Positions 34,139-38,304 of a stretch of DNA of 58,353 nt are shown in pieces. Numbering within the stretch: the first letter of the stretch is position 1; the number at the start of each line of letters is the position of its first letter. Both the position numbers and the translations under genes were made by a program. The stretch comes from a virus (taxonomy: Duplodnaviria; Caudoviricetes). Under the pieces are notes generated by a model. It worked only from the letters and a program-made list of their open reading frames with translations. It searched no databases and had not been told where the DNA came from. The stretch covers positions 1 through 58,353 of IMG/VR virus record IMGVR_UViG_3300047300_000852; one strand, 5' to 3'.

Positions 34139-36529
34139 TCAAGCATCCGATTCCGTCACCTCGTGCATACCATGCAAGGCATCCACTGATCGGCATAGCA
34201 GGCCCATACACGCTTCCAGGGAGTCCGGCCCGTCATCGTACTTGCCGTAGGGAAACTCTTTCATCTGGGCCAGTAGCAACTCATTCGAGGCTGACCTACG
34301 GAAACGAAGTAGCCTTCCGTCCAGCCACTTCCCGAGGCGCTCAATCCGCACGTTCTTGTTCACCGTCTGATTTACTAGGATAGGCGGGTCTGCGTTGTAT
34401 CCGATCTCATCGCATACCTGCCAGTAATCATCGGCCAACAAGTCCTGCCATGCGTTCGCCTCAAGTCCCACAAATGCCGTTTTCCGTTCGCGGTTCCACT
34501 GGACGTAATCCCGCACCATCTTCTGTACAGGCTTGCGGTCAATGTCCGAATCGACCCAGAACAACCCGTTCTTGTATCCGATCCAGGTCACTGCTTGATA
34601 GTCACCCTTCCGACTGTTCTTGCCCTTCGACGGGTCAAGCCATGCCGCAGAAATCAAGCAGTCTTTCGGATCAGGGAACTCATCGTCTTGCGCCCAAATG
34701 TTCGCGAAGTATTCTTCCGGCCATTCCGACATACTCGAACCCTTCGGACTACCCTGGTAGATCGAGTGCCACCAGTGTCCGGCCTGCCGCTTCCTTCTCT
34801 CCATCACTTCCGCAGGCCAGCGTTCCGGCCACAACGCTTCACCTTCTTGCCGCTGTAGCGGATCCTTCACCCCGTTCTCTTCTCGCAGGGCTTGAAGGGT
34901 GATCGACCGCACCCGGATATCCAGTTCCGCAGCTTTCGACTCTATCCGGCCTATGAGGTCATCCGAATGCCACTGGGTATTATGGGTCACCATGCCGTTT
35001 GCGATAAAGCTACCAGTATTCTCGACTTCGATATCGTAAACATCTTCATTACCAGCAGGCTCAATAAATACTATTCGTTCACTCGTGAACTCTGAGGTAT
35101 TCAACGAGTCGAGCGGCGGAGGCACTGGTTTCAATATATCCTGCCGCGATATTGCACTGTGTACATAATAATCCCCTGATCTTTCCGGTTTTATGACAGT
35201 GATCGACGCAGAAATTCTTTCGCTTGTGGCAATTCTCATCAGTCCGTTCTTCGAGGCAAACTGCGCATCTTCCTCCCTGAAATTCGAACATTCGCTTGTA
35301 GTCCTCTGCTCTAATTCGATACCTGTGCCACAAATGCGCGTTTCTGAATGTTTCTGGCGTGTGGCTAGGAGGTCTATGCCCGTCAATGGAACGCTTCTTT
35401 GTGTAGTGATTGTTGCAGTATCCCCTACATTTCGCTGGTTTATCGCATCCATCCCATTGGCAATTTTTTCCCTTCCACTTTCCGTGATACTCTGACTTGA
35501 CGTGCCTTCCTTCTCGGCGGTCTTTGTGATAGTGATACCGGCACTTTCCGAGGCAATACCCCTCTCGATCGCATCCCTCGACACCGCAAGATTTTGTTCT
35601 TTGCGGTATGTCACCATTTTCATTTCCGTACTTAAGTTTTTCAGCCTGACCCATTTCAATTCTCCGTTCGTCTCTACCAAAAACGGATGACGGGAATTAC
35701 CAACAATCGACTTGCCGGATTCAAGCATCACCCTAAAAACATCATCGCGCCCTACATTGGCATGATTAACGATACTAGAGTTTACGCACTTTCCGTTGTC
35801 AAACGATTTAACACCCTCACCCGGAGATAGGTCTTTTATTTGCTTAGTTGTTCCATCGGCCATAGAAACCATTGAGCTACCGGCTAGGCAACACAACAAA
35901 ACCAGCTTCCCGCCCGGCTCCAATCGCGTTGATGACGTGGAAACGAACCAATCCCACTGGTCATCGCGGACCTTTTGAGAGTACGCCGACTTCGCGTCCT
36001 TAAGGTAGTCGTCGATCACAAGAAGGTTTGCACCGAATCCCACGATCGACGTAGCCACACCAGCCGCGAGACACTCACCGCTTCGGTGCTCGAATCCCCA
36101 GTTCCTAACCGCTGACTTCTTCTGATCAACTCCATCGAGTCCCATCATCGGCGAAAGCTCGTGCACCTTATCCCGTACCCATCTTGAGTGACTGTTCGCT
36201 AGGGTCGATGTATTCGAGCAAATCATCACCCGTTTGTTCGGGTTTCTCAGCATGTACCAAGCCGGTGCCCATCGTGCCAAGTACTCCGATTTTCCATGGC
36301 GTACAGGGCACTTGATTATCAAGCAATCTAGGTTCGGATTCTCAAGTAGATTCCTGAACTCGAAATCGATTACCGCTAGGTGCTTCGCCCGTTTCCACTC
36401 GCCTTTGCTGAATCGCTCAGCCATCAGTAGCGGGGATCGCATCGCCATTGAATCGAAGTAGACTTGCTCGGCATCCTTGCGGCTCACCCAGTAGGGCCTG
36501 ATCTGATCCATCGCATCAAGCGTAGTCAT
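34139..36529 (-). CDS. Terminase large subunit (intein-containing)
   Basis: P.RHGKS Walker A, LLVIDD Walker B, TQWH.DDL coupling motif, DPS and DDGPD nuclease motifs. Confidence 0.95.
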   Translation of the reverse strand: MTTLDAMDQIRPYWVSRKDAEQVYFDSMAMRSPLLMAERFSKGEWKRAKHLAVIDFEFRNLLENPNLDCLIIKCPVRHGKSEYLARWAPAWYMLRNPNKRVMICSNTSTLANSHSRWVRDKVHELSPMMGLDGVDQKKSAVRNWGFEHRSGECLAAGVATSIVGFGANLLVIDDYLKDAKSAYSQKVRDDQWDWFVSTSSTRLEPGGKLVLLCCLAGSSMVSMADGTTKQIKDLSPGEGVKSFDNGKCVNSSIVNHANVGRDDVFRVMLESGKSIVGNSRHPFLVETNGELKWVRLKNLSTEMKMVTYRKEQNLAVSRDAIERGIASESAGITITKTAEKEGTSSQSITESGREKIANGMDAINQRNVGDTATITTQRSVPLTGIDLLATRQKHSETRICGTGIELEQRTTSECSNFREEDAQFASKNGLMRIATSERISASITVIKPERSGDYYVHSAISRQDILKPVPPPLDSLNTSEFTSERIVFIEPAGNEDVYDIEVENTGSFIANGMVTHNTQWHSDDLIGRIESKAAELDIRVRSITLQALREENGVKDPLQRQEGEALWPERWPAEVMERRKRQAGHWWHSIYQGSPKGSSMSEWPEEYFANIWAQDDEFPDPKDCLISAAWLDPSKGKNSRKGDYQAVTWIGYKNGLFWVDSDIDRKPVQKMVRDYVQWNRERKTAFVGLEANAWQDLLADDYWQVCDEIGYNADPPILVNQTVNKNVRIERLGKWLDGRLLRFRRSASNELLLAQMKEFPYGKYDDGPDSLEACMGLLCRSVDALHGMHEVTESDA
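34979..35890 (-). mobile_element. Intein (304 aa) in TerL
   Basis: Starts CLAGSSMVSMADG, block B N.RHPF, ends VYDIEV...FIANGMVTHN/T; splicing restores LVLLC-TQWHSDDL. Confidence 0.95.
35079..35654 (-). CDS. Endonuclease VII-type HNH homing endonuclease overprinted inside the intein
   Basis: Y..M...QGGRCAVC...VDHCHKTGKIRGLLCTQCN; two N-terminal C...GC....C..HY modules; different frame from TerL. Confidence 0.9.
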   Translation of the reverse strand: MGQAEKLKYGNENGDIPQRTKSCGVEGCDREGYCLGKCRYHYHKDRREGRHVKSEYHGKWKGKNCQWDGCDKPAKCRGYCNNHYTKKRSIDGHRPPSHTPETFRNAHLWHRYRIRAEDYKRMFEFQGGRCAVCLEERTDENCHKRKNFCVDHCHKTGKIRGLLCTQCNIAAGYIETSASAARLVEYLRVHE

Positions 36530-37028
36530 TTTCGCCCCCTGGTATCACCTTAAACTCTCGCAAGTCCAAGTCATCACCGGAAACGTTTCCACCTGATTCG
36601 ATCAACTGGAGTACCTGAGTCACCGAGATGTGCTGATTCCCGACTATCTGGTTCGGTAGGTCTTTCTTCGTGTTCGCCTGATCCATCGCTAGCAGGATGC
36701 GGCTTGCAAGCAGCTTCTGCTTTGGTTCTGCCTTTGGGTCAATTACGATTCGGGCATTCTCGAACACCATTCGCTCACGTAGGGCTTGCGGTACAGGCCA
36801 GCGTTCATTGATTGCCCGTATCTCTAGCCTGGCATCTTGGAAACGTTTGTACGCTTCTCCTTGGCCTACGGCTATCGCTTCGGCTCTACGCTTATCAGTA
36901 AGCTCCGGCCAGAAAAACGAATCTGGTTCGGAAGCTTCTTTGCCTGTCGCTTTCGGTGCAAGTGATCGGGATGGTTTTCCCCTCGTTGGCTTGCCCGGTG
37001 ACTTCTTTTTTCCGGCACGCTTCGTCAT
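36516..37028 (-). CDS. Terminase small subunit (putative)
   Basis: Directly upstream of and overlapping TerL; size. Confidence 0.6.
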   Translation of the reverse strand: MTKRAGKKKSPGKPTRGKPSRSLAPKATGKEASEPDSFFWPELTDKRRAEAIAVGQGEAYKRFQDARLEIRAINERWPVPQALRERMVFENARIVIDPKAEPKQKLLASRILLAMDQANTKKDLPNQIVGNQHISVTQVLQLIESGGNVSGDDLDLREFKVIPGGENDYA

Positions 37029-37140: not shown

Positions 37141-38304
37141 CTAAGCCTTGACTGCTTTTCGCCCAGTCAGTTTTTCCCATCGAGCGATGATTACGTCACA
37201 GTATTTCGCATCGATCTCCATGCCGTAGCAACGCCTGTTGAGTTGTTCCGCTGCAATCAATGTTGTTCCTGATCCTAAAAATGGATCGTAAACCATTTCG
37301 CTTTGCATTCGTTCGAGACACCATACGAAAAGCTCAACAGGCTTTTTTGTTGGATGCTCAACATCTCGTGTCTTGCCTCGCTCTGACTGTTGATTGATAG
37401 ACTTGATGTAGCATCCTCTTCCGCCTTTTTGCCAAGCTAATTCGGCATCGGCAAGGAAACTCGTTCCGTCAGCGCTTCTCTTGTCCCATATCAACCACGA
37501 TCCAACAGGCAATGAAGATCCGTAGAGGTTCGCCCCCCACAAAATGACATTCTCAGCGAATAAAAGAGTACTCGCATCAAACTGTTGATTATCGCCCCTG
37601 ATTTCCGCGTACTGGCTACTGCAAGTTTTCACAGCCTTTTTAGTAAACCGCGTGTAATCACCGTTCCATTTTATTCCGTATGGTGGATCGGTCAGAACGC
37701 AATCAATTGTTGCCCCTGCAAGTAGCCGATCAACCTGTGACTGATCGCTTGAGTCACCACATAGTAACCTATGCTCTCCAAGTATCCACAAGTCACCAAC
37801 CTTGCAAACAGGCTCTGCGTCCTCAGGTACGCTGTCCAAGTCTGAATCACCGTCCGACTCCGGTTCCGGGTCGAAAATCTTCGCCGCTTCGCCTAACTCG
37901 GTGAACCAGTCTGCTAGCTCTTGGCTCGAAGTGTTGACCGTTCGCAGCAACTCTTCCAAGTCGCAAGCATCCACCTCAGCAAGCTCACTCGACGCATCAA
38001 GGATCAACAGCAGCTTGCGTTCGTCCTCCTCTGATAGATCGACGTACTCAACATCAACCAGCGTTTCATCACCAGCGCCGAGGGCTTGCATCACGCGTTC
38101 GTGACCGTCAACGATGTAGCCGGTTCGCTGGTTGACTATCACCGACTTGCAGAACCCTAGCTCCTCAATCGAGGCCGCTACCACTTCCCGCTGCTTCTGC
38201 GGGTGCCTTCGGTGGTTTCTTGGGTTCGCCAACAGTTGATCGGCTCGAACCTTATCGTGCCCGACGATACGGCTCTGCCACTTGTTCGGCTTATTCTTCG
38301 CCAT
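37141..38304 (-). CDS. ParB-N domain fused to an amino-DNA methyltransferase
   Basis: NPRN.R.H, IVDGHER; TDPPY, HPT.KP, DPFLGSGTT. Confidence 0.9.
   Translation of the reverse strand: MAKNKPNKWQSRIVGHDKVRADQLLANPRNHRRHPQKQREVVAASIEELGFCKSVIVNQRTGYIVDGHERVMQALGAGDETLVDVEYVDLSEEDERKLLLILDASSELAEVDACDLEELLRTVNTSSQELADWFTELGEAAKIFDPEPESDGDSDLDSVPEDAEPVCKVGDLWILGEHRLLCGDSSDQSQVDRLLAGATIDCVLTDPPYGIKWNGDYTRFTKKAVKTCSSQYAEIRGDNQQFDASTLLFAENVILWGANLYGSSLPVGSWLIWDKRSADGTSFLADAELAWQKGGRGCYIKSINQQSERGKTRDVEHPTKKPVELFVWCLERMQSEMVYDPFLGSGTTLIAAEQLNRRCYGMEIDAKYCDVIIARWEKLTGRKAVKA

Follow-up and report, generated by a model that had tools for sequence, protein, structure and literature searches.

An intein in the terL gene of an uncultivated freshwater phage and the endonuclease VII-type gene overprinted on it, a putative homing nuclease

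In an uncultivated freshwater phage, the gene for the large terminase subunit (terL) appears to be interrupted at its C-motif by a mobile element of two overlapping genes, an intein in the terL frame and an endonuclease VII-type (EndoVII-type) homing nuclease overprinted on it in another frame. We give this reading, in which the element belongs to an old and large family, a probability of about 0.84. The window, that is, the whole stretch of DNA that was analysed, is the 58,353-base virus record IMGVR_UViG_3300047300_000852 of IMG/VR. With an estimated completeness of 97%, it represents a near-complete phage genome; its guanine plus cytosine (GC) content is 53%, its large open reading frames (ORFs) are all on the minus strand, and the public sequencing runs that contain the stretch are labelled freshwater or riverine metagenomes. 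The proposed element explains why the "terminase" of this phage is 796 amino acids (aa) long and reveals a 191-aa gene that gene callers had missed.

The terL gene occupies positions 34139..36529 (minus strand) and encodes the 796-aa precursor plus a stop codon, made up of a 213-aa N-extein, a 304-aa intein and a 279-aa C-extein. The two ends of the ORF matched terminase large subunits (PHROG phrog_38, E = 3.5e-65; Pfam Terminase_6N, E = 1.5e-6), and the middle of the full-length ORF matched the Pfam family Intein_splicing (E = 9e-13). Scanning IMG/VR with the window's TerL returned 28 loci (given L numbers here), 27 of them covering the insertion site. The ...LLC|TQW... junction is seamless in 26 of these 27, and a 304-aa insert was found there only in L005. 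Because the intein-less relatives show this uninterrupted junction, the borders of the intein can be placed exactly at 34979..35890 (minus strand). On the same strand, the N-extein part (TerL residues 1-213, ending in ...GGKLVLLC) lies at 35891..36529, the junction after LLC being given by alignment with the 26 intein-less relatives, and the C-extein part (residues 518-796, starting with TQWHSDDL) lies at 34142..34978, as indicated by the same alignment and by phrog_38, which covers residues 518-774. Ligation of the two would yield a TerL of 492 aa, the length found in the intein-less L006 and L031. The window's exteins are only 25-30% identical to those of any cultured phage, with no actinophage among the best matches (25-30% for the C-extein, to TerL of Microcystis, Bacillus and Mu-like phages), and a blastn search of the terL region against 50,697 phage records gave zero matches. 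The intein is AT-richer than the exteins (GC 0.461 versus 0.549). The insertion site is probably the TerL ATPase C-motif, a label taken from the accessible text of Kelley et al. 2016 (PMC5050341); a phmmer search of an intein-less relative against PDB sequences returned 0 matches with which to locate the site on a solved TerL.

The 304-aa intein alone matched Intein_splicing over residues 8-304 (E = 6.7e-14; 52.4 bits, cut-off 35.8), and its frame is open throughout. It has the residues of a class-1 intein, namely Cys1 as the N-terminal nucleophile, the block B histidine motif N65-S-R67-H68-P69-F, and a C-terminal His303-Asn304 pair followed by the +1 Thr of TQW. C1, G4, N65, H68, P69 and W80 were invariant in 65 family sequences and R67 was nearly so. 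An AlphaFold2 model built with the alignment of these 65 sequences showed a confident mini-intein fold for residues 1-98 plus 268-304, with a predicted local distance difference test score (pLDDT) above 95, and none for residues of about 100-265. The N-terminal splicing region (residues 1-98, which comprise blocks A and B with the RHPFL motif and Trp80; 35597..35890, minus strand; pLDDT 95-98) is 74% identical in amino acids to that of L005, with a ratio of nonsynonymous to synonymous change (omega) of 0.16, and the C-terminal one (residues 268-304, blocks F and G; 34979..35089, minus strand; pLDDT 96-98) is 85% identical. In Foldseek searches, the model matched the mini-inteins Ssp DnaB (the best), Mtu RecA and gp41-1, with E values of 3e-8 to 2.5e-5 and TM-target values of about 0.8-0.9. 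Because TerL is essential, autocatalytic splicing would be expected, and the reported splicing of a family member, Chandler gp6, lends support to the view that the window's intein self-splices.

The two splicing regions are joined by a read-through linker (residues about 100-265; 35096..35593, minus strand) that is open but predicted to be disordered, with a pLDDT of 34-50 and no secondary structure. Ser, Thr and Ile make up 33% of residues 100-265 (54/166), against 21% of the splicing parts. The intein contains no in-frame LAGLIDADG endonuclease that Pfam (no family at E <= 0.1) or a LAGLIDADG-like regular expression could detect, and no protein-level constraint on the linker residues was detected in the comparison with L005.

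The DNA of this middle part also encodes, at offset +2 (frame 3), a second protein. The nested ORF runs from ATG to TGA at 35079..35654 (minus strand), starts 875 nt after the TerL start, is 191 codons long and overlaps the intein frame by 576 nt including the stop codon. Its product, a putative His-Me finger homing endonuclease, matched Pfam Endonuclease_7 (PF02945; E = 2e-18, 66.5 bits against a cut-off of 23.6) over residues 109-188 and PHROG phrog_2914, "endonuclease VII" (E = 1.8e-26). Two Cys/His-rich repeats occupy the N-terminal half and the catalytic domain spans residues of about 109-188. A profile of 65 nested proteins matched T4 endonuclease VII (1e7d; E = 1.4e-7), and eight positions that were invariant in these sequences (C130, C133, D151, H152, H154, C164, C167 and N168) aligned with T4 C23, C26, D40, H41, H43, C58, C61 and N62. 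We take the aligned T4 residues to be the four cysteines of a zinc site and the Asp, His, His and Asn of the active site. Mutants N62D and H43N appear in the titles of PDB entries for the T4 enzyme. The AlphaFold2 model of the nuclease had a mean pLDDT of 85.6, and its top Foldseek matches, weak ones with E of about 0.02, were T4 endonuclease VII (E = 0.019, probability 1.00, 90 columns) and Hpy99I. The exact protein was absent from a collection of 5.8 billion proteins, where the best match was 53% identical.

Selection was compared between reading frames using L005, the closest relative, which has a 304-aa intein and a 191-aa nested ORF with identical start and stop positions; the inteins are 70% identical in DNA. 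Within the overlap, differences between the window and L005 fell 53/35/96 on the first, second and third codon positions of the nuclease frame, with proportions of nonsynonymous and synonymous differences (pN and pS) of 0.21 and 0.76 and 66% aa identity. The intein frame of the same DNA was almost neutral, yet free of stops (omega 0.89, 45% aa identity), and the unused third frame had an omega of 1.39; outside the overlap, the intein frame showed the usual 18/15/56 pattern. Among 22 disjoint ungapped family pairs, three of them near-identical sequences and so not independent, 21 had a third-position excess in the nuclease frame (totals 1002/789/1836). This excess, together with the near-neutral intein frame, indicates that selection acts on the nuclease protein and guards it, not the residues of the intein-frame middle. 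The data thus support the overprinted ORF as a complete EndoVII-type gene under purifying selection.

The open intein frame across the overlap is more than chance. In the window, the overlap has 0 stop codons in the intein frame and 15 in the third frame; in 82 family overlaps there were no intein-frame stops at all, against 4-28 (median 15) in the third frame. When the nuclease ORF of the window was recoded synonymously, the intein frame was still open in 73/20000 trials with uniform codons and in 555/20000 with the window's codon usage; the L005 ORF gave 8/20000 and 128/20000. Overall, the frame survived in 0.04-2.8% of trials. A preliminary description of this DNA, made from its letters, had anticipated much of this: its coordinates, lengths and account of a fully open 304-aa intein were correct, and its Ser/Thr/Ile-rich middle lacking LAGLIDADG and its complete 191-aa EndoVII-type protein with its own ATG and stop were borne out. 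Of the checks it had proposed, the profile search and the comparison of selection per frame came out in its favour, with both frames scoring above their Pfam cut-offs and the frame-specific selection going the way of the nuclease; the borders predict the 492-aa spliced TerL that it expected.

The layout is shared by a family. Two IMG/VR scans were made, one with the intein alignment, for which the best 80 of 294 confirmed matches were examined, and one with the N-terminal splicing region alone, since the middle part of the first query could favour look-alikes; here the best 80 of 415 confirmed matches were examined, and the two sets of 80 overlap. In the first set, EndoVII matched in frame +2 and in no other at 80/80 loci, all of which had an open intein frame and the identical TerL site, at GC contents of 0.37-0.67. 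In the second, 74 had the +2 nuclease with an open intein frame, 4 were mini-inteins of 140-149 aa with no nuclease in any frame, 2 had a nuclease in a locus cut by the contig end or by an intein-frame stop, and none had a nuclease in frame. Every nuclease-carrying family member examined thus has the out-of-frame layout. The window's splicing domain is 27-58% identical in amino acids to those of 64 members, with which it shares the invariant positions, and tblastn E values for 80 loci ranged from 6e-56 to 3e-31. The insertion motif reads LLC|TQWHSDDL in the window and ...|TRW in the 80 IMG/VR members, three actinophages and L034, with one exception, TWW, in L065.

Members were also found beyond IMG/VR. 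The best tblastn matches of the nested protein in phage records lie inside terminase genes of Mycobacterium and Gordonia phages, and among the 40 matches listed, 39 are at the terL position and 1 is a free-standing endonuclease VII gene. In AlanGrant, Phlyer and Angelicage (3/3 actinophages examined), the nuclease match again has an offset of +2 relative to the annotated terL; the Chandler match has record coordinates and identity equal to those of Phlyer, whose offset was confirmed. A prokaryote genome collection contributed four contigs with the same TerL intein and the +2 nuclease, titled as Anaerolineae, Microbacteriaceae and Gallionellaceae metagenome-assembled genomes (MAGs) and as an Oribacterium isolate; in 16 other full-length intein matches in prokaryote genomes, located in other host proteins, EndoVII was found in no frame. 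The family as a whole spans at least 115 distinct sequences and 415 IMG/VR matches, in phages of 37 to 67% GC and in contigs labelled as four bacterial phyla.

Some members deserve separate mention. The mini-inteins L198, L202, L266 and L267 sit at the same TerL site and still have A in front of the conserved Trp codon, which would be compatible with an origin by deletion. L212 has a +2 nuclease match together with an intein-frame stop at about residue 283; this could reflect a damaged terL, a mistake in the assembly or a failure of our crude end rule to catch the border. The locus GC contents of L119 (titled Oribacterium sp.; 0.64) and L117 (titled Microbacteriaceae MAG; 0.51) look unusual for these taxa, and the contigs may be prophage, phage contamination or misbinned.

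The start of the nested gene is built into conserved intein codons. Its ATG (35652..35654, minus strand) consists of the last base of the Lys79 codon and the TG of the invariant Trp80 codon, and a Shine-Dalgarno-like GGAG (35662..35665, minus strand), formed by the Gly76-Glu77 codons, lies 7 nt before it. All 86 family members compared have a start codon at this Trp-overlapping position (ATG in 75, GTG in 11), their nested ORFs, of 151-214 aa, are intact in 85/86, and a Shine-Dalgarno-like tetramer is present at -17..-5 in 97/115 distinct family sequences. A stop codon occurs no more than one codon upstream in the nested frame in 20/86 members, and no slippery heptamer near the start is conserved in the family. 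The fixed start, the tetramers, the upstream stops and the lack of a conserved heptamer make independent initiation on the terL mRNA the best reading of how the nested gene would be expressed. No RNA structure sequestering the ribosome-binding site was detected, as the consensus fold of 22 family sequences at the start had an energy of -0.24 kcal/mol with no covarying pair and the window's own fold had a z-score of 0.53. A search for an internal promoter found 0 sigma-70-like sites in 34900..36700.

The distribution of the element is sporadic and conflicts with the tree of the host gene. The extein tree places the window in a group with the intein-less L006, L007 and L008 (support 100/99), and the exteins of L005 are 98.4% identical to those of L013 and 97.1% to those of L016, both of which lack a TerL C-motif intein; the element is carried by 2/28 TerL alleles of the window's clade, in two separately supported clades. 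In two public freshwater metagenome runs, contigs with the intein were found alongside contigs that lack it. In run X4, a freshwater metagenome, one contig joins position 34979 to 35901, skipping 921 letters and placing 9 between, a net difference of 912 that equals the intein length, and another contig comes from inside the intein. Run X2 has intein contigs and a further contig that, at its loose end, continues over an intein-less junction. The terL contigs of X2 and X4 are about 88-99% like the window and belong to a study other than its likely source; as they come from mixed populations, they show coexisting allele types among close relatives, not homing itself.

A second, unrelated intein was observed at the P-loop of close TerL relatives (after ...PVRHGK and before S-E/Q-YLA), where the window has no insert. 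In L013 (2965-5466) and L015 (2986-5466), it is about 335 aa long, with Leu in place of Cys as its first residue, a LAGLIDADG-like middle part and a terminal His-Asn pair; in L023 (2986-4890), a version shortened by deletion to about 143 aa occupies this P-loop site.

We propose the following model. Gene 1 would be a class-1 intein in the terL frame, whose two splicing regions, about 98 aa at the N-terminal and about 37 aa at the C-terminal end, fold as a mini-intein; they are joined by an unstructured read-through peptide of roughly 165 residues, of which nothing is detectably required except that it be free of stop codons. Once the precursor had been translated, the intein would excise itself and ligate the exteins into the 492-aa TerL, a reaction shown experimentally for Chandler gp6. 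Gene 2, the 191-aa nuclease at offset +2, would be translated on its own from a GGAG-N7-ATG made of the intein's conserved Gly-Glu...Lys-Trp codons. The nuclease is most likely the homing enzyme, which would cut the intein-less terL of co-infecting relatives at or near LLC|TQW, the repair then copying the whole element. The element would belong to a large and old TerL C-motif intein family in which the nuclease is always in the +2 frame or absent.

Several points weigh against this model. Translation of the nested ORF, splicing of the window's intein and cutting of an intein-less allele are steps that we infer, and no RNA run was among the listed runs containing the stretch. The Foldseek search with the nuclease model gave no match at E <= 0.001 (best E, 0.019), so that the EndoVII family assignment rests on sequence profiles. 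Among 115 distinct sequences, 97 have A and 18 have G before the TGG of the Trp codon and none has C or T, but this purine is partly forced, as the preferred residues Lys, Glu and Gln have only purine-ending codons. The four nuclease-less mini-inteins also carry A at this place, so that comparison with them does not tell whether the nuclease or the intein drives the constraint. The main support for the start-codon argument is therefore the 97:18 bias of A over G, along with those codons that could have ended otherwise, as 10/10 family-box codons before Trp (Thr, Ser, Val and Arg CGN) and one Ile codon (ATA) end in a purine. The family statements derive from two overlapping sets of best matches. 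Finally, the nuclease is not maintained everywhere: the nested ORF of L111 has a stop at codon 14, although the near-identical L071-L077 are intact, and the pair L071-L099 lacks the third-position excess (8/12/7), so that in this one lineage (L111; L071/L099) the nuclease looks as if it were decaying.

These signs of decay, and the existence of same-family mini-inteins (4 of the best 80), would be expected if the nested ORF were a dead relic of a free-standing nuclease gene that had landed in a mini-intein and persisted through splicing only. We consider this highly unlikely in view of the purifying selection on the nuclease frame, seen between the window and L005 and in 21/22 pairs, and of the intactness of 85/86 ORFs and the invariance of the eight metal-binding or catalytic positions in 65 sequences. 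Frameshift errors of assembly or sequencing might also disguise an ordinary in-frame nuclease, the window being a metagenome assembly. The chance of this is negligible: L005, an independent assembly at 70% nucleotide identity, has the identical offset, start and stop, the same layout recurs in 80/80 further IMG/VR contigs, three isolate phage genomes and 4 prokaryote genome contigs, two compensating errors would leave the open intein frame across the overlap unexplained, and a contig from a public run, which may be the source, matches the stretch without any difference.

Two further explanations were considered. The nuclease could be made as a fusion by programmed -1 ribosomal frameshifting from the TerL/intein frame, since an offset of +2 equals -1, in some members as many as 67 codons upstream of the start are free of stops in the nested frame, and some X_XXY_YYZ heptamer lies near the start in 14/86. 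We judge this very unlikely. The heptamers are not alike in sequence or in position, neither the window nor L005 has one, no conserved RNA structure was found around the site, and neither the invariant ATG/GTG position (86/86) with its Shine-Dalgarno-like tetramers nor the close upstream stops are what frameshifting would predict. The EndoVII-type protein could instead be a domesticated phage function, a resolving or debranching nuclease for packaging that merely resides in the intein. Its catalytic core is of the endonuclease VII family and its gene lies inside the packaging ATPase gene; the best-known member of that family, T4 gp49, is a structure-specific resolvase needed for packaging and is not known as a mobile-element enzyme. 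We regard this as very unlikely too, because 26 of 27 close relatives have neither the element nor a replacement at the locus, which argues that it is dispensable, because its distribution on the extein tree is sporadic, and because a nuclease that occurs with an intein at one TerL site across very different phages follows the pattern of a site-specific mobile element. The N-terminal Cys/His repeats are, moreover, absent from T4 endonuclease VII (157 aa), which is matched only at residues 10-71.

The mobile two-gene element has published precedent. In a 2025 preprint, actinophage TerL inteins were described with an out-of-frame layout; the preprint called this layout previously unreported, noted an unstructured in-frame middle and proposed that a free-standing nuclease gene had invaded an intein. 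The preliminary description had called the arrangement rare rather than certainly new; its caution about novelty is upheld by this precedent, but "rare", which is also how the main text of the preprint treats the layout, is too weak for a family in which all nuclease-carrying members examined are out of frame. We found no other literature report of EndoVII in an intein. Mycobacteriophage inteins at this site were named TerL6-f and located in the ATPase C-motif by Kelley et al. 2016 (mBio; PMC5050341), where Chandler gp6 was spliced in a reporter; endonuclease VII is unmentioned in the accessible text of that paper. The window's element is like actinophage TerL6-f in its host protein, the site before T-R/Q-W, the +2 offset, the start position and the unstructured middle, its splicing domain is 28-31% identical in amino acids to those of AlanGrant, Phlyer and Angelicage, and its nuclease is homologous, at 38-47% identity. 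It differs in belonging to an uncultivated freshwater phage of 53% GC, in its +1 motif (TQW, not TRW) and in having the long form of the nuclease, with two N-terminal Cys/His repeats. The main text of the preprint does not contain "start codon", "ribosom", "metagenom" or "IMG". Absent from the main texts of the papers cited here, although supplements of the preprint may already cover them, are how large the family is and how widely it extends beyond actinophages, the constancy of the frame and of the start position, and the frame-specific selection signature.

Comparable layouts are known from other genes. According to Phillips, DeSimone & Gogarten (bioRxiv 10.64898/2026.09.14.751524), a cyanobacterial DnaX intein has an out-of-frame LAGLIDADG homing endonuclease. 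As in the window, that endonuclease is in a +2 ORF, omega is low in the nuclease frame and raised in the intein frame, and, as in the window's family, intein-free, mini and full alleles coexist in populations; unlike the window's element, it concerns dnaX in cellular genomes, a LAGLIDADG nuclease and an unrelated intein. The ShiLan insertion, described in the accessible text of Arsenault et al. 2025 (Genes; PMC11855218), hides an HNH endonuclease, read in a different frame, in a phage DNA methylase. There, too, the nuclease is nested in an insertion open in the host-gene frame, but no splicing domain is present and the loop stays in the host protein, whereas the complete intein of the window would remove it. 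T4 endonuclease VII (gp49; PDB 1e7d, 1en7 and 2qnc) shares the eight aligned Cys/Asp/His/Asn positions and, by sequence profile, the His-Me finger core with the window's protein, which has about 108 extra N-terminal residues, including the Cys/His repeats, beyond the aligned part. In the overlapping DNA of the window, the nuclease lies between N- and C-terminal splicing halves as a separately translated gene, at least as proposed. Such an order is also that of the fractured genes reportedly described by Dassa and colleagues in 2009, in which a free-standing nuclease gene separates the two halves of a split intein; there, however, the host gene is in two ORFs and splicing is in trans, while the window's frame is continuous and splicing would be in cis. 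The window's element is thus a real dual-coding element with a published precedent, and its mechanism is well supported in outline.

The breadth of the family leads us to lean, with only a little more confidence than doubt, towards a broader proposal: in a very large family of TerL inteins, the out-of-frame layout may be stable and ancestral and the only state in which a nuclease is carried, with both genes co-adapted, and not a rare transitional accident. If so, the ribosome-binding site and start codon of the nuclease would be built from the intein's conserved Gly-Glu...Lys/Glu-Trp codons, and a disordered peptide of ~165 residues would be tolerated in the HINT fold solely as a cost of the overlap. 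More generally, the findings indicate that an intein can retain its mobility enzyme in a separate, overlapping gene through long periods of evolution and across many phage groups. This bears on how inteins acquire nucleases, as when a free-standing nuclease invades a mini-intein, and on the amount of unstructured sequence that can be accommodated by a HINT domain. It also matters for annotation, as genes for such nucleases probably go unannotated in their hundreds. Within the family there is, moreover, a natural collection of mini-inteins whose insertion site is large and permissive, and a set of putative site-specific His-Me finger nucleases with matched target sites.

Two neighbouring ORFs of the window were noted upstream of terL. 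A 170-aa ORF at 36516..37028 (minus strand), whose end overlaps the terL start by 14 nt, is in the position expected of a small terminase gene and had no PHROG match at E <= 0.001. Beyond it, the ORF at 37141..38304 (minus strand) encodes a 387-aa protein in which a ParB-like nuclease/partition domain is fused to a DNA methyltransferase (phrog_498, E = 1.1e-77).

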